From a phage, in NCBI GenBank assembly GCA_030877765.1, contig GCA_030877765.1_4853.1: DNA of 46,671 nucleotides. The stretch is one strand, 5' to 3'. Shown here in pieces: positions 21,004 to 36,701 of this stretch (its first letter is position 1; each line of letters opens with the position of its first letter). Under the pieces are notes generated by a model that was given only the letters and a program-made list of their open reading frames with translations, did no database searches and had not been told where the DNA came from. Position numbers and translations under genes: made by a program.

Positions 21004-21282
21004 ATGAAACTATCGCAACGAGGCGTGGAGACGTTTGGAATTACCGATGCCGTGAATATATCGCCTTACATCACTACCGAGACAACGCAGAATCAGTTCG
21101 ACGCGCTGGCAAGTCTTGCCACCGACATTGGCATTTACGCGTTCCGTAAATCAACGCTTCTGAAGAAGCACAACCTCCGCTGCTTCTCATGTGCTGTTGC
21201 GCATTTCATCGCGTGGGGCGAGAAGACTGGCGACAAAGCAAAACGCAAAGCTGAAAAAGAGGTTTACTGGTATGGCTATTAG
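21004..21282 (+). CDS. Lysozyme-like remnant (GH24/P22 gp19-type C-terminal subdomain only)
   Basis: QNQFDALASLATDIGIYAFRKSTLLKKHNL...AHFIAWGEK parallels the P22/T4 lysozyme C-terminal region as recalled from memory; catalytic Glu/Asp/Thr segment absent; has its own RBS (GGAGG). Confidence 0.5.
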   Translation: MKLSQRGVETFGITDAVNISPYITTETTQNQFDALASLATDIGIYAFRKSTLLKKHNLRCFSCAVAHFIAWGEKTGDKAKRKAEKEVYWYGY

Positions 21283-21736
21283 TAAAAACATGAAGGCGTT
21301 TCTGGATATGCTGGCGTACAGCGAGGGCACTGATAACGGGCGGCAGAAAACCAATAATCATGGTTATGATGTGATTGTTGGCGGCTCACTGTTTACCGAC
21401 TATTCCGACCACCCGCGCAAGCTGATTAGCCTGCCAAGGCTGGGCATTAAATCCACCGCCGCCGGTCGCTATCAGGTACTGGCTAAGTTTTATGATGCGT
21501 ACAAAAAGCAATTGCGTTTACCGGACTTCTCCCCCGCATCGCAGGACGCCATTGCAATGCAGCTAATCCGTGAATGCAAGGCCACCGCTGATATTGAGGC
21601 TGGTCGCATTGCTGATGCCATCCATAAATGCCGCTCCCGCTGGGCCTCATTGCCGGGCGCTGGGTATGGTCAGCATGAGCAGAAGCTGGATAAGCTGATT
21701 CAGGTATACAAAGAGGCTGGCGGAGCTGTGGCATGA
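21272..21736 (+). CDS. Endolysin, lambda R-type lytic transglycosylase
   Basis: KAFLDMLAYSEGTDNGRQKTNNHGYDVIVGG..FTDYSDHPR...GRYQ...WASLPGAGYGQ closely tracks lambda R as recalled. Confidence 0.9.
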   Translation: MAISKNMKAFLDMLAYSEGTDNGRQKTNNHGYDVIVGGSLFTDYSDHPRKLISLPRLGIKSTAAGRYQVLAKFYDAYKKQLRLPDFSPASQDAIAMQLIRECKATADIEAGRIADAIHKCRSRWASLPGAGYGQHEQKLDKLIQVYKEAGGAVA

Positions 21737-21972
21737 AAAAGCTAAGCAACTGGCTGCTCGCCGCGTGGATTTCATTCTGCTCGCTGTTACAACTATGGCC
21801 TGATGCAATGATGCATGTGTGGGTAATGATGCCGGATGACCTGAAAGCAGCGCTACCGCCAATCGTGGTCAAAGGTGTGAGTTACTCAATTATGCTTGTC
21901 GGCATCCTCGGCAAAATGCACGGCATGAGGAAGGAAAACCGGAGGCTGCGCAATGATGTCGATTCTCGTTAA
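21733..21972 (+). CDS. Putative holin (two TM helices, charged C-terminus)
   Basis: TM1 LSNWLLAAWISFCSLLQLW, TM2 VSYSIMLVGILG, tail KMHGMRKENRRLRND; ATGA-coupled to the endolysin. Confidence 0.45.
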   Translation: MKKLSNWLLAAWISFCSLLQLWPDAMMHVWVMMPDDLKAALPPIVVKGVSYSIMLVGILGKMHGMRKENRRLRNDVDSR

Positions 21973-22444
21973 ATACTGGCGACCGCTGGCAATTATTATA
22001 ATTGTTGCCGCTGGCGCGTTGTGGGTGGCAAATAAAGTGTCCGGTTATGGCGAGCAACAATATGCCGCCGGATACGCGAAGGCAGTCGCAGAACAGAAGG
22101 CCGCAGACGAACAAGAGGAGCAACGACGCAATGCAGAACTGCAAAAGATTCAGGCCGACGCACAGCAAAGGATTGATGCTGCGCGCAATGATGCTGTTAA
22201 TGCTGCCGCTAAGTCTGGCAGGTTGCAGCAACAACTCACCAGTATCCGCAAGCAGCTCGTCGGATATTCCACCGCTGAGTCCATTGGCAACCCAGCCGCA
22301 GAAACCGGAGTTTTGCTTGCAGACGTGCTCCGCAAATCTGTCGAAAGAAATCAACAGCTGGCAGATTACGCTGACAGGGCGAGAGAGGCAGGATTGACGT
22401 GTGAGGCACAGTATAATTCTCTGCGTAATAAAAAAGCCCCGTGA
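21953..22444 (+). CDS. Rz: Rz-like i-spanin
   Basis: N-terminal TM (LAIIIIVAAGALWV) followed by Gln/Ala-rich coiled coil. Confidence 0.8.
   Translation: MMSILVKYWRPLAIIIIVAAGALWVANKVSGYGEQQYAAGYAKAVAEQKAADEQEEQRRNAELQKIQADAQQRIDAARNDAVNAAAKSGRLQQQLTSIRKQLVGYSTAESIGNPAAETGVLLADVLRKSVERNQQLADYADRAREAGLTCEAQYNSLRNKKAP
22176..22397 (+). CDS. Rz1: Rz1-like o-spanin lipoprotein, embedded in +1 frame within Rz
   Basis: MLRAMMLLMLPLSLAGCSNN: signal peptide with LAGC lipobox; Pro-rich mature region. Confidence 0.7.
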   Translation: MLRAMMLLMLPLSLAGCSNNSPVSASSSSDIPPLSPLATQPQKPEFCLQTCSANLSKEINSWQITLTGRERQD

Positions 22445-32172: not shown

Positions 32173-32709
32173 CTACAGACGCATAGGCATAACAACAATC
32201 TTCGCAGTCTCTCCAGATGGCGCACTAAGACAGCAAACAGCGGCATCTGTGTTTCCATTTAGTTCAAATTTAACGCAACAGAATCTTGGGTTAAACAGCT
32301 TTGCCACCTTCTCGATATCAACAAGGTAGCCAGCATTGAAGCCAATTTTCTCTGCAGGCAAGGTCTGATTCGGAATGACGCGATCAATATCAGGGAATCG
32401 ACCATCAATCTCTTCGCAGATACCTGCTCCAACCATCGCGCCGGCTTCATCATGATACGTTGCAATTTTCGACTTTGTATCAATGATGGCGTGCTCATAA
32501 CGCTTTGTTGGTGACTTGCCAATCTTGATGATTACATTTTCTGTCAGCTTATTGTCATGGTTGCCACCAATAAATGCGCGATGACCGTCAGTTGAGGCAA
32601 TGCGACCATCTTGCATAAAGCAAATACCATTCAGGTAGTAGCGCACATCATTGCGAGCCTGAAAGATTAATGCTGATTCAAGTAATAATTTGCTGATTTT
32701 TAGTTTCAT
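32173..32709 (-). CDS. Truncated DnaN-like sliding clamp (beta-clamp) fragment
   Basis: Blocks shared with E. coli DnaN as recalled: DVRYYLNG, TDGHR, DGRFPD, IGFN..Y.LD, C-terminal VVMPMRL. At 178 aa it is about half of a full clamp. Confidence 0.7.
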   Translation of the reverse strand: MKLKISKLLLESALIFQARNDVRYYLNGICFMQDGRIASTDGHRAFIGGNHDNKLTENVIIKIGKSPTKRYEHAIIDTKSKIATYHDEAGAMVGAGICEEIDGRFPDIDRVIPNQTLPAEKIGFNAGYLVDIEKVAKLFNPRFCCVKFELNGNTDAAVCCLSAPSGETAKIVVMPMRL

Positions 32710-32882
32710 CACTTCACCTTAATCATGTGTTGTTTTGCAACCTTCAGGCATTCTTCAAAAATGCCACCATTCTTTGCGCTCTGATTGCGCTTGTAATACT
32801 GAATTGCCGCATCAATTGCCATCTGGTCGATTTCAGGCAGTTTTGCGCGCAGCTGTTTTTCGATGAATTGTTCGGCGTTCAT
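32709..32882 (-). CDS. Small protein (57 aa)
   Basis: ATG 32882; stop overlaps the clamp-fragment start (TGATG); below track cutoff. Confidence 0.3.
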   Translation of the reverse strand: MNAEQFIEKQLRAKLPEIDQMAIDAAIQYYKRNQSAKNGGIFEECLKVAKQHMIKVK

Positions 32883-33777: not shown

Positions 33778-34118
33778 TATTTCTTTCCTAATGCTTTATT
33801 GATAGATTCTTCAGCTAACAGCAATTCATCTGGGTATTGTTCATTCCAGTTTTGTTTGTATGCCTTGCTAAGCATTTTTTGCAGAGCTTCAAGCAACTCA
33901 GGTGCTGCTGCCATTAAATTAAAGTCATGCTCAACACTGCTATCAATCTCCCAATGCATCCCGTTGTATTTAGCACCCTTGCTAGAGAAGGCAATATTTC
34001 TGTCATCGTCGTGGTGACAGCCAGGTGTGTCATCAGTTCGACAAGACGGGTAAATAGCTGCGCAACCCCCGCGAATGTCTGCGACCCACGGCCCGGGCGT
34101 ACCTTTAAATTCTTTCAT
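33777..34118 (-). CDS. KEFKGT-motif protein, paralog B
   Basis: MKEFKGTPGPW...AAAPELLEALQ...INKALGKK; the RBS-start context GAGGTGATGAAAATGAAAGAATTTAAAGGTACG is shared with paralog A. Confidence 0.6.
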   Translation of the reverse strand: MKEFKGTPGPWVADIRGGCAAIYPSCRTDDTPGCHHDDDRNIAFSSKGAKYNGMHWEIDSSVEHDFNLMAAAPELLEALQKMLSKAYKQNWNEQYPDELLLAEESINKALGKK

Positions 34119-34159
34119 TTTCATCACCTCTAATATTTATTGTTGTTTCTACGTCACTA

Positions 34160-34205
34160 ACTATAAACGCACCACCAATCTACGTCAACAGGAATATGCT
34201 AAAAT
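34160..34205. promoter_or_regulatory. Divergent promoter pair (duplicate of 20932-20977)
   Basis: Minus strand TTGACG, 17 bp, TATAGT; plus strand extended -10 TGcTAAAAT. Confidence 0.6.
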
Positions 34206-34235
34206 CATGCTAATCAAACAACAGGAGATTTAAAC

Positions 34236-34355
34236 ATGGGTTCAACCAACTCACCATCTCGTTCGCGCGCTACTGGCAACACAAAAACTGGCGGCAAAAC
34301 TGGCGTGGTGAAGCCAAACGGCTCTACCCGTTCACCATCGCGCGGTAAAAAATAA
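34236..34355 (+). CDS. Small basic Ser/Gly/Arg/Lys-rich protein (39 aa)
   Basis: AGGAG RBS, ATG 34236; stop overlaps the next ATG. Confidence 0.35.
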   Translation: MGSTNSPSRSRATGNTKTGGKTGVVKPNGSTRSPSRGKK

Positions 34356-34783
34356 TGTTCGGCGCAGATGTTGCCATCATGATCATGTATGTGCTTGGAT
34401 TTGCCTGCACGGGCATGGTTGCGTTTCTGGTGTTCATTCCGGCAATGGTGATGTCTGTGTATCTTGGATGGGTGCTTGTTGATTCATTTCCCGCCGAATA
34501 TCTGTATTACCTTGCGCAGTGTATGGTCGGGTTGTTTCCGGCTATTGCGCTGCGTAAAAGTACAAAGATGGCGCTCTGCGTGCTGACGATGAGCCTTTAC
34601 GAATGGCTGGTTGCGATAGAGTCATTCGTATGGGAATTTATCACGCCTGTAGAAACGCCGCTTCATGCGCAGTACGCATTTATTATTATCGGCATCCATC
34701 TGTTCATCCTTTTCATCACTTTTAAATGGGGCGGCGAAATTGGACGTTATTCTTGGCGTGGTTGCCATCGTTTTTTTCGCTGA
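34355..34783 (+). CDS. Polytopic membrane protein (about 4 TM)
   Basis: Four hydrophobic helices. Confidence 0.5.
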   Translation: MFGADVAIMIMYVLGFACTGMVAFLVFIPAMVMSVYLGWVLVDSFPAEYLYYLAQCMVGLFPAIALRKSTKMALCVLTMSLYEWLVAIESFVWEFITPVETPLHAQYAFIIIGIHLFILFITFKWGGEIGRYSWRGCHRFFR

Positions 34784-34828
34784 TTCAAATCTATAAGTGC
34801 TGGAAACATATTATCAGCGAGACTCGCA

Positions 34829-35113
34829 ATGAACGAAACACTAAGACAGGCCACAGAGCAAGTTATAAGCGGGCCGATGGGGCAGGTGATTGACAAGGCT
34901 GGATATGCCTCCATTGGTACTGGTATTGGACTGAAAGTTGCAGAGCAAACGCCTGTCACGCAGTCTTATTTTGAGGCTATGATTCCACACAGTCTGACAG
35001 AGTGGGCGGCAGTAGCGTCAATCCTCGGCGCCCTGTCTCTGGTAATAAAGAACCTCTTTGAAATGTGGTGGAAGGTACGGGAGTCAAAAAAAAATGGCAG
35101 CACCAACACCTGA
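34829..35113 (+). CDS. Hypothetical protein with C-terminal TM helix
   Basis: WAAVASILGALSLVIKNLF hydrophobic segment. Confidence 0.4.
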   Translation: MNETLRQATEQVISGPMGQVIDKAGYASIGTGIGLKVAEQTPVTQSYFEAMIPHSLTEWAAVASILGALSLVIKNLFEMWWKVRESKKNGSTNT

Positions 35114-35486
35114 AGAATTAGTAAGCCAGATGGCATCACGTGGAATGACTATCACCACAACGGATGCGTCTGGTATTCTGTGCCTTGTGGCATCAATCAG
35201 TGAATGCCTTGAGCTGAACTACCCCAATGATGAATGCCGGCAAAATGCGATCATGCTGTGGGCTTCCATCCTGATTAGCGCAAATACCGCAGGGCGCTAC
35301 GTCACCAGTCAGAGCGCACCATCTGGCGCATCGCAATCATTCGCTTATGGCAGCAAGCCGTGGGTGGCGCTATACAATCAGATGAAACTACTGGATACAG
35401 CAGGATGCACTGGCGATTTAGTGGAAGACCCGGACGGCGGCGGCAAGCCGTGGTTTGCGGTTGTGCGTGGGAGTAAATGCAAATGA
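35094..35486 (+). CDS. Putative head-tail connector/adaptor protein
   Basis: 131 aa from MAAPTPEEL; position relative to downstream head-tail joining genes. Confidence 0.4.
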   Translation: MAAPTPEELVSQMASRGMTITTTDASGILCLVASISECLELNYPNDECRQNAIMLWASILISANTAGRYVTSQSAPSGASQSFAYGSKPWVALYNQMKLLDTAGCTGDLVEDPDGGGKPWFAVVRGSKCK

Positions 35487-36624: not shown

Positions 36625-36701
36625 TGGTGGACACGGACGGATTTGAACCTTCAATCAGCCGATTATTAGTCGGTTGCTTTAACCAATTAAGCTACGCGTC
36701 C
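36625..36701 (-). tRNA. tRNA-like gene (77 nt including encoded CCA); apparent anticodon AAU
   Basis: Minus strand folds by eye: 7-bp acceptor stem with one G-U, D-arm GCTT/AAGC, anticodon stem-loop with loop CTAATAA, T-loop GGTTCAAATCC, discriminator A plus CCA. One mismatch each in anticodon and T stems. Confidence 0.55.

Follow-up and report, generated by a model that had tools for sequence, protein, structure and literature searches.

A 46,671-nucleotide (nt) stretch of phage DNA (NCBI GenBank assembly GCA_030877765.1, contig GCA_030877765.1_4853.1; hereafter the window) carries, at positions 34,236 to 35,113 of its plus strand, three small genes that we named orfA, orfB and orfC, together with a fourth gene for a membrane protein, orfX, which overlaps orfB and orfC and was overlooked in the original prediction made from these letters. 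The genes are real, conserved, of membrane type, syntenic and dispensable for plaque formation, and the module of four genes, with orfX included, is in all likelihood genuine. We infer for the module a homology to holins and a function in lysis timing, and the reading favoured here, at a probability of about 0.5, is that of an auxiliary, late-expressed, holin/antiholin-like set that adjusts when lysis occurs. The features concerned are as follows.

34236..34355, plus strand: orfA, a 39-amino-acid (aa) hydrophilic basic peptide (open reading frame, ORF, with AGGAG at 34223-34227, 8 nt upstream)
34355..34783, plus strand: orfB, a predicted inner-membrane protein of 142 aa (146 aa in relatives) with 4-5 helices (hydropathy, TMHMM, AlphaFold2)
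34740..34893, plus strand: orfX, an unannotated overlapping gene for one predicted transmembrane (TM) helix and a charged tail (conserved open frame, -1 relative to orfC)
34829..35113, plus strand: orfC, a 94-aa class II holin-like membrane protein (phrog_13738; TM helix; sub-threshold PF04971)
34771..34777, plus strand: T7 homopolymer with a 1-nt insertion (DNA alignment with five relatives, in which the run is T6 or interrupted)

Conservation, synteny and dispensability of the genes

The three ORFs of the original prediction were all found on the plus strand, and their placement between an accessory cassette (a ParB-like gene and others, to the left) and the head-tail joining genes (four, to the right) was borne out. 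Using tblastn, orfA was recovered from 145, orfB from 103 and orfC from 204 phage records. Pairwise ratios of nonsynonymous to synonymous substitution (dN/dS) were 0.06-0.33 for orfA, 0.09-0.19 for orfB and 0.01-0.29 for orfC, compared with 0.01-0.11 for the neighbouring structural gene DUF7370, and because they are well below 1, the three are, judged from these alignments, real genes under purifying selection. Hydropathy, TMHMM in the homologues of phage Vi II-E1 and AlphaFold2 all gave TM helices in orfB and orfC. Neither of the outcomes named in advance as telling against the prediction, a lack of conservation in relatives or of predicted TM helices, was thus observed. The statement that membrane proteins are unexpected in a morphogenesis operon was overstated, as the genes form a syntenic, long-conserved part of the operon and not an insertion, and there are precedents in other phages. 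Lysis genes are embedded between head and tail genes in P2/HP1-type phages, S-R-Rz come first in the lambda late operon, and the tail genes of HK97 include a membrane moron, gp15.

The orfA peptide (phrog_34767, labelled as function unknown) has an isoelectric point of 12.0, with nine Lys and Arg residues and no Asp or Glu. Its description as a small basic peptide therefore holds for the window, but the basic character is not conserved and the homologue in Yersinia phage P400 is not basic overall. What is conserved is a repeated motif, GS(S/T)NxPSR, at both ends of the peptide, which is also present in the 47-aa P400 homologue; in the more distant locus L022 (L and P numbers are our own designations) the C-terminal motif, ...KPNGSSNSPSR*, stands directly before the orfB-like gene. 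A role as an SPKK-type DNA binder would be weak speculation, and against it, the Ser-Pro pair is not conserved (GPSR in P400 and many Skatevirus phages). The gene is unannotated in Vi II-E1, CF-SP1, seszw, Segz_1, Sa179lw and others.

The start of orfB overlaps the orfA stop as TAATG. Its product (GRAVY +1.02) has strong hydrophobic segments at residues 1-45 and 102-127 and weaker ones between; four TMHMM helices are given in the deposited record of the Vi II-E1 homologue (95% identical), and AlphaFold2, with a 19-sequence alignment, returned five helices (pLDDT 69.6, pTM 0.60). The positive-inside rule predicts an N-in/C-in topology. Conserved acidic residues are located in AlphaFold2 helix 4 (TMHMM helix 3), among them E83 and E89, which are invariant and intramembrane, while the tail that follows the invariant KWGGEIG is the least conserved part of the protein. 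The family (phrog_14688, with a weak match to phrog_20960) comprises 48 protein clusters, none of which contains a Pfam domain, and a fold search with the model found nothing better than E=1.5 in PDB and only its own family and unnamed phage proteins in BFVD. The 'lipoprotein' label of this gene, which originated from a match to the PROSITE pattern PS00013 in the Vi II-E1 record, was rejected. The protein is predicted to be polytopic, the sequence LGFAC has Gly at -3 where a lipobox would read L-[AS]-[GA]-C with an invariant Cys, and of 19 aligned homologues, 10 have F, V, L or I at the position of the putative lipobox Cys18, which is also absent in P400.

In P400 (40-48% aa identity), orfA (47 aa), orfB (146 aa), orfX and orfC (87 aa) come directly after the major capsid gene, on its strand and before the same head-tail genes, with no accessory cassette between them. 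Klebsiella Roufvirus-like phages have kept orfC and lost orfA and orfB. Among more distant members, the orfC-like genes P0120, P0124, P0125 and P0130 (~27-40% identity) are immediately upstream of DUF7370 and overlap it except in L017; this adjacency was found in L017, L022, L023 and L024, and L022 has the orfA tail, orfB, orfX, orfC and DUF7370 in order. P0129 and P0128 (26-32% identity) form part of lysis cassettes, where they follow a Peptidase_M15 endolysin and a GTA_holin_3TM holin (phrog_3427); a multi-TM protein of 122-160 aa stands directly before each of the two, and an orfX-like ORF overlaps each of them. An orfB-like four-TM protein of 132 aa, orfX and an orfC-like gene also occur together at P0139 and in L026/L027. 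The small and large terminase genes are ~0.7 kb downstream in L018, the locus of P0139, and the set adjoins terminase genes in L018/L019 as well as in L026/L027. The gene upstream of P0134 matches phrog_20960, the PHROG weakly matched by orfB. Scans of IMG/VR with orfC sub-alignments provided no usable pattern or confirmed match, two loci excepted. Taken together, the module appears to be core synteny rather than an insertion, with orfX-orfC as the probable minimal unit, orfB as a usual companion and orfA present in some lineages, either in a lysis cassette or at the capsid/head-tail junction. Since the contexts of the distant members differ, this unit seems to move between positions.

The genome of seszw, a Skatevirus, was reduced by Yuan et al. 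through iterative CRISPR deletion (CiPGr), and genes absent from the viable isolates were classed there as non-essential (PMC9825161). In seszw_300L.2 (36.7 kb, among the smallest isolates), the end of orfA is joined to orfX codon 18, and both orfB and the orfX TM helix are gone. The deletion in seszw_260L runs from the 3' end of orfA to 12 nt before the orfC ATG, and seszw180S (P0051) carries an in-frame orfA(1-28)-orfC(29-94) fusion without orfC residues 1-28. Hence, plaques can form without orfB, without an intact orfX, without the C-terminus of orfA and without the invariant N-terminal block of orfC, as each of these is missing from viable mutants. About 51 Salmonella-phage records have likewise kept orfC and lack orfB. 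The 3' part of orfC, which contains the start of the DUF7370 gene, was kept in all 203 near-full-length matches, including ~69 genome-reduced seszw mutants.

The overlapping gene orfX

We detected orfX by comparing the remnant upstream of orfC in the Klebsiella phages with the Skatevirus sequence. In relatives, it consists of 50 codons from a conserved TTG (34740 in the window) after GGCGGCGAAA, and its product, (M)DIILGVVAIVFSLIQIYKCWKHII..., continues into a charged tail. The gene covers the last ~56 nt of orfB, crosses the 45 nt regarded as 'intergenic' and reaches 41-65 nt into orfC, and its product ranges from ~35 to 55 aa across lineages. The Skatevirus version reads (M)DIILGVVAIVFSLIQIYKCWKHIISETRNERNTKAGRRASYKRDDGTGD, that of the Klebsiella phages (M)DIAIGVIVIAFSLVQVYRCWKFIIRRIINERRASARRKPDN and that of P400 (M)DILIPILTIAAAGYGIYSAWRQIIKGWKNERSAAKHDRGGNGSGD, and the TTG of each is preceded by GGCGG(C/G)GAAA. 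An N-out/C-in topology is predicted by the positive-inside rule. None of the inspected annotated Skatevirus, Klebsiella-phage and P400 records has an annotation for orfX, and the TTG-initiated sequences are absent from a collection of 15 billion proteins.

Apart from any functional reading, we considered whether orfX is a gene at all, or whether its open -1 frame is a by-product of the constraints on the end of orfB and on orfC initiation, which would reduce the module to the three annotated ORFs. The TTG start of the Skatevirus, Klebsiella and P400 versions, with a Shine-Dalgarno match of only 4/5, fits such a by-product, as do the absence of any PHROG or Pfam family match, the viability of mutants deleted for the TM helix and the broken frame in the window. 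However, in 14 of 14 independent lineages, those without an upstream orfB included, the frame is open and encodes a hydrophobic stretch with a charged tail behind it, and it is open and conserved in nine relatives. In L017, L018/19, L020-L025 and L026/27, the hydrophobic helix and charged tail are encoded in the -1 frame and overlap the start of the orfC-like gene. Five lineages use an ATG start, and two versions, in L018 (46 aa) and L024 (49 aa), were called independently by gene callers. In a six-frame control at 12 loci, only the orfX frame was consistently open (38-50 of 50 codons) and hydrophobic (KD17 of at least 1.71), in 12 of 12. The juxtamembrane motif, YKCWKHII in Skatevirus, becomes YNC(A/V)KHVIN in L018, L026 and L027, giving a common Y(K/N)C(W/A/V)KH(I/V)I despite orfC there being only ~23% identical. 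Moreover, orfX is conserved where it overlaps the poorly conserved orfB tail, and substitutions between Skatevirus subgroups in this overlap are mostly at orfX third positions (CECAV_048 versus VSt472, 3/1/9 at positions 1/2/3). The by-product explanation is thus very improbable. The Klebsiella phages have deleted orfB, yet they retain the exact orfX-encoding remnant; the idea that the open frame is a mere relic of this deletion was rejected, given that the encoded protein is conserved whether or not a lineage has orfB. With tblastn, orfX was found in the same 204 records as orfC; it overlaps the orfC start in every lineage and is best regarded as the probable obligate partner of orfC.

In the window itself, the insertion in the T7 run alters both overlapping genes. 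The orfB product ends in ...HRFFR* (142 aa) instead of ...HRFFADSNL* (146 aa), and orfX is split into a TM half at 34740-34796, in the frame of ORF 34665-34796, and a tail half corresponding to ORF 34726-34893, 55 aa from its ATG, with a less hydrophobic N-terminus (KD17 1.48 versus 2.41). All 100 near-full-length tblastn matches to orfB align only to residue 141/142, so the insertion appears specific to the window sequence and could be a genuine mutation or a homopolymer sequencing error. Opposite slips were found in public assemblies, with orfB and orfX fused at the T run in P0071 (a cluster of 15 member sequences) and at the GGGG run 34728-34731 in P0077 (a cluster of 8). These tracts are therefore slippery, at least for sequencing, and the three variants could reflect errors in sequencing, hypermutability of the tracts or slippage that is regulated. 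Frameshifting by -1 on T_TTT_TTC at the end of orfB was rejected because its only outcome would be 'FFR*', which is no plausible product. A hairpin with T run at 34754-34777 was also considered as an intrinsic terminator; the T run is interrupted in VSt472 and CF-SP1.

Probable kinship to holins and proposed function of the module

The orfC protein has one clear TM segment at residues ~55-77 (hydropathy, KD19 1.70) followed by a basic tail, KVRESKKNGSTNT. TMHMM puts the helix at 59-81 in the Vi II-E1 record, and AlphaFold2 gave a helix at 56-89, which is the only confident part of the model. In the close family, two invariant blocks, a Gly-rich G-x-x-GQ(V/I)IDKAGY(A/T)SIGTG(I/L)G and TEWAAxxSIxGAxSLxxKNxFExWWKxR, are separated by a variable linker. 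Both blocks persist in distant members, in which the first consists of 16-20 uncharged Gly/Ala/Ser-rich residues, similar to a first transmembrane domain (TMD1) of the signal-anchor-release (SAR) type; this segment also has 16-20 uncharged residues in P400, and 12 in the window (AGYASIGTGIGL), eight of them Gly, Ala, Ser or Thr. The basic C-terminal tail is conserved across the family and corresponds to the charged basic tail of class II holins. By the positive-inside rule, the topology would most simply be N-in/C-in with a marginal first helix. The family is rare, with 27 clusters in a profile search of 1.84 billion cluster representatives.

Holins were the only recurrent database similarities of orfC. 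Weak matches to PF04971 (P21 holin S) were obtained for 10 of 19 close and 6 of 24 diverse members (best 9.8e-4), and PF16080 (HP1) and PF10746 (T7) were each matched by two members. Distant members match phrog_20, phrog_4237, phrog_1350 and phrog_920, all labelled as holin. For instance, P0125 matches phrog_13738 at 6e-12 and phrog_20 'holin' at 1.4e-6 over both hydrophobic segments, while P21 S, the sequence of which was confirmed by a 100%-identity match, gave phrog_20 at 8.5e-33 as well as phrog_4237 and phrog_1350. Aligning the orfC profile with a P21 S alignment by hhalign resulted in P=2e-4 and a probability of 47% over TMD2 and the tail, or 19% with a more diverse profile. Two deposited records carry the label 'holin' for orfC. 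These similarities point to orfC as a remote homologue of holin superfamily II (P21 S / T7 / HP1), although this is not proven.

Like the class II holins (P21 S, PF04971/phrog_20; T7 gp17.5, PF10746; HP1, PF16080), members of the orfC family are small (76-118 aa) and combine a weakly hydrophobic, Gly/Ala/Ser-rich first segment, a (S/T)x(E/D)W-AA-xxS(I/V)xG TM helix and a Lys/Arg-rich tail. Unlike them, orfC has a 20-residue N-terminal extension, a longer linker between the helices and, in the window, a TMD1 interrupted by Lys; it also stands at the front of the head-tail joining operon, with the endolysin 13 kb away, and has no SAR endolysin partner. The P21 antiholin is produced from a second start in the same frame, whereas orfC always occurs with an overlapping upstream partner gene. 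The closest functional precedent for orfX/orfC, by analogy only, is the Gp4/Gp5 pair of mycobacteriophage Ms6. There, the class II protein Gp4, which has a SAR-like TMD1, interacts with Gp5, which has a single TMD, and the two determine lysis timing, neither being individually required for viability (PMC6116114). Both pairs consist of a class II-like protein with a SAR-like TMD1, putative in orfC, adjoining a single-TMD protein with a charged C-terminus, and the individual non-essentiality matches the dispensability in the seszw mutants. The order is reversed here, with orfX before orfC and overlapping it, orfB and orfA accompany the pair, and the Ms6 genes are inside the lysis cassette of a phage with a Gram-positive-type host.

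In P2/HP1-type late operons, Y, K, lysA, lysB and lysC stand between head-completion and tail genes, and the multi-TM protein LysA of P2 has an effect on when lysis occurs. The module is similar in that holin-type and multi-TM timing proteins would lie between capsid and head-tail/tail-completion genes in a late transcript, and orfB (146 aa, 4 TM) has the same size and topology class as LysA. It differs in that the endolysin and spanins are elsewhere in the window genome, and searches of PHROGs and Pfam showed no sequence similarity of the module to LysA or Y of P2. As a short alternative-frame membrane-protein gene missed by annotation, orfX resembles Rz1 within Rz, an overlap present in the same genome, and phiX174 E within D. 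It lacks a lipobox, however, and is therefore not an o-spanin, and it overlaps the ends of genes instead of being embedded in a single one.

According to the favoured lysis-timing reading, the translation of orfA-orfB, of orfB-orfX-orfC and of orfC with the adaptor gene DUF7370 would be coupled through gene overlaps. Transcription would be late, from a candidate extended -10 element (34197-34205) or by read-through from the capsid genes, as in P400; late expression is suggested by the orfA/orfB overlap at TAATG, by orfX overlapping both of its neighbours and by the orfC stop inside the adaptor gene. As the late genes are expressed, the proteins would build up in the inner membrane and influence the timing of membrane permeabilisation or depolarisation, while lysis itself would be left to the separate endolysin-holin-spanin cassette. 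Here, orfC would provide the Gly/Ala/Ser-rich, weakly hydrophobic SAR-like first segment, a true TM helix and a basic cytoplasmic tail, and orfB, and probably orfA, would be frequent accessory partners of orfX-orfC. The dispensability in the seszw mutants is compatible with a timing function. Of the two functions raised in the original prediction, exclusion or lysis timing, the latter thus gained indirect support from the holin kinship, the homologues in lysis cassettes and the probable co-expression with late genes, and the former gained none from searches for Sie or defence matches.

The separate cassette comprises the following features.

21004..22444, plus strand: lysis cassette with GH24 fragment, endolysin, holin and Rz/Rz1 (ORFs, PHROGs, Pfam, Bas80 annotation), 13 kb from the module
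21004-21282, plus strand: GH24 fragment, 92 aa (PF00959, profile positions 55-114 of 125; phrog_10457)
21272-21736, plus strand: lambda R-like endolysin, which starts MAISKNMKAFLDMLAYSEG and has no hydrophobic N-terminus

The cassette holin is a 79-aa, two-TM protein (phrog_13249, DUF7940), and Rz (DUF2514) has an embedded Rz1 lipoprotein frame. The GH24 fragment, annotated as 'endolysin' in relatives, covers only the C-terminal half of a lysozyme and lies directly upstream of the endolysin; it may be the vestige of a replaced endolysin, perhaps of SAR type, or have taken on a new role.

Several points weigh against lysis timing. The phage already possesses a complete lysis cassette with its own holin, so orfC is not the sole holin candidate. 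As the N-terminus of the cassette endolysin contains no SAR domain, a pinholin-type partner is not required, and a pinhole-type lesion would not release a soluble endolysin. Furthermore, orfC itself is outside the cassette, only the distant homologues P0129 and P0128 being located in lysis cassettes, and in seven lineages the orfC-like gene is tied to the DUF7370 adaptor gene and not to lysis genes. Its first hydrophobic segment in the window, with only 12 uncharged residues between K23 and K36, is too short for a standard TMD. No member of the orfC family passes a curated holin threshold (13.4 bits against the 26-bit cut-off of PF04971 for the window protein, E=0.078), the hhalign probabilities of only 19-47% cover one TM helix and the tail, and spurious similarity arises easily among short TM proteins. 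Finally, because the seszw mutants carry many other deletions, no mutant phenotype, the drop in burst size of seszw_300L from 140 to 37 (PMC9825161) included, can be assigned to the module. A more far-reaching version of the lysis-timing reading would see in the module an unrecognised, self-contained permeabilisation/timing device of pinholin-type ancestry, with its SAR-endolysin partner surviving as the vestigial GH24 fragment at 21004-21282. Through translation, its dosage would be tied to that of the head-tail adaptor gene, so that the lysis clock or the collapse of proton-motive force would be coupled to virion completion, and antiholin and holin would interact by way of E83/E89 of orfB and Lys74 of orfC, which is near-invariant. 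We consider this elaboration quite improbable.

Membrane location and laboratory dispensability would also suit superinfection exclusion or a membrane-level host takeover, in which the inner-membrane proteins, like morons, block DNA entry by a secondary phage or alter the envelope. HK97 gp15 and T4 Imm are small inner-membrane exclusion factors, and such proteins can sit in structural operons. The PHROGs category of orfC is indeed 'moron, auxiliary metabolic gene and host takeover', but no similarity to Sie or defence families was found in PHROGs, PADLOC and NCBIfam, and the similarities at the family level are only to holins. The genes are a long-conserved syntenic element of strictly lytic phages and not a variable insertion, they are coupled to late genes whereas exclusion is usually early, and an Imm-like 'superinfection immunity protein' gene is already present elsewhere in the genome. 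Exclusion is therefore an unlikely explanation.

The link with DUF7370 raises a role in morphogenesis or in the virion, with orfC, alone or with orfX, as a membrane-anchored head-tail joining factor or a minor virion protein that inserts at DNA ejection. T4 gp40, a membrane-bound head assembly factor, is a precedent. The position of orfC immediately upstream of DUF7370 in seven lineages, overlapping in six of them (not L017), and the universal retention of its 3' part agree with this role; the latter is equally explained by the start and translational coupling of an essential downstream gene. Against it, distant orfB-orfX-orfC modules that are not accompanied by DUF7370 are found in lysis cassettes or beside terminase genes, the invariant N-terminal motif of orfC can be removed without loss of viability (P0051), and four dedicated proteins already make up a complete head-tail set. 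No virion proteomics for this phage group was found in the literature searched, and the P400 paper reports none, which also counts against a virion role. We regard this explanation as distinctly unlikely.

The protein type is a familiar one: P2/HP1 and lambda offer earlier cases of small holin-like membrane proteins and embedded lysis genes. The new elements are a holin-like family of great divergence whose partner gene is obligate, overlaps it and had gone unannotated, the stable position of this family ahead of the head-tail adaptor gene, and the removal of a mistaken 'lipoprotein' label. The conserved overlapping gene is missing from the annotation of more than 200 deposited genomes (Skatevirus-like, Macdonaldcampvirus, Swiduovirus, Klebsiella Roufvirus-like and Yersinia phages), many from phages proposed for therapy or biocontrol, and in these genomes its neighbours carry the wrong 'lipoprotein' label and inconsistent 'holin' or 'membrane protein' labels. 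Comparative genomics thereby exposed a hidden TTG-initiated gene missed by gene callers. If the module does act in lysis timing, it would allow burst size and latent period to be adjusted from a site other than the recognised lysis cassette, which matters for phage engineering and for the interpretation of genome reduction. The class II holin superfamily would gain a very divergent branch whose members have an obligate overlapping partner, and lysis research would have a new two- to four-component system to study.

Source phage and neighbouring genes

Escherichia phages Bas80 and Bas78 and Acinetobacter phage vB_AbaM_AB4P2 match the 1.9 kb around the module from end to end at 93-95% identity, and phages HC6, 6947 and HC8A reach up to 98.9% across 82% of the query. 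A total of 152 phage records match this region, the majority being Salmonella Skatevirus and relatives; the window is therefore, by this similarity, a Skatevirus-like virulent siphophage of ~47 kb. Two features flank the module.

34197..34205, plus strand: extended -10-like element TGcTAAAAT, candidate promoter of the rightward operon (read from the sequence)
35094..35486, plus strand: DUF7370 gene, probable head-tail adaptor (PF24085, E=5e-36)

On the other strand, 5' of orfA, the leftward accessory cassette contains a phrog_1273 gene, a ParB-like gene and a phrog_3007 gene (PHROGs, Pfam). The 179-aa product of the latter (32173-32712, minus strand) is labelled 'RusA-like Holliday junction resolvase' in PHROGs. 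It also matches a DNA polymerase processivity-factor PHROG, has weak matches to the Pfam DNA polymerase III beta (sliding-clamp) domains 2 and 3, and is named DNA polymerase III beta subunit in one record; the RusA label is doubtful. The divergent intergenic region (34128-34235, 108 nt) is nearly invariant among Skatevirus relatives. A promoter consensus scan of this region called only a leftward sigma-70-like promoter (TTGACG-17-TATAGT at 34188-34160) and no rightward one; the leftward -35 hexamer overlaps the region upstream of the rightward TGcTAAAAT. An ORF at 34075-34233 (plus strand), annotated as a coding sequence in Bas80 (Bas80_0046; L001 6400-6534), is antisense to the 5' end of the phrog_1273 gene and to the divergent promoter region, and looks like an annotation artefact.

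Downstream of orfC, the four head-tail joining genes are DUF7370, phrog_797 (connector-like), Neck1/tail completion and the tail terminator PF23842. Between the tail terminator and the major tail genes, inside the head-tail/tail operon, ARAGORN identified a tRNA-Ile with anticodon AAT (36625-36701, minus strand); the equivalent position holds tRNA-Met in Bas80 and tRNA-Ser in CECAV_048, so this identity call is unstable. The DUF7370 ATG is located 20 nt inside the 3' end of orfC, an overlap kept in relatives that suggests translational coupling of the two genes. Programmed frameshifting or slippage at the A9 run (35086-35094), fusing orfC to DUF7370, was rejected, as the run is broken in six of seven relatives while the overlap is kept. 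In the Salmonella phage PHA46_2 (L009, PP216514.2; 2501-3456), deposited as a 'complete genome', orfB has an internal deletion of 43 codons, orfC is cut short after residue 25 and continues in a different frame, and next to nothing of the DUF7370 gene is left; this phage can either do without the adaptor-like gene or has been assembled incorrectly. In the Vi II-E1 record (L006, AM491472; 3301-3658), the DUF7370 gene is annotated from an internal Met (MTITTT...), and an upstream ATG within the 3' end of orfC gives MTAPTPEEL..., as in all relatives.

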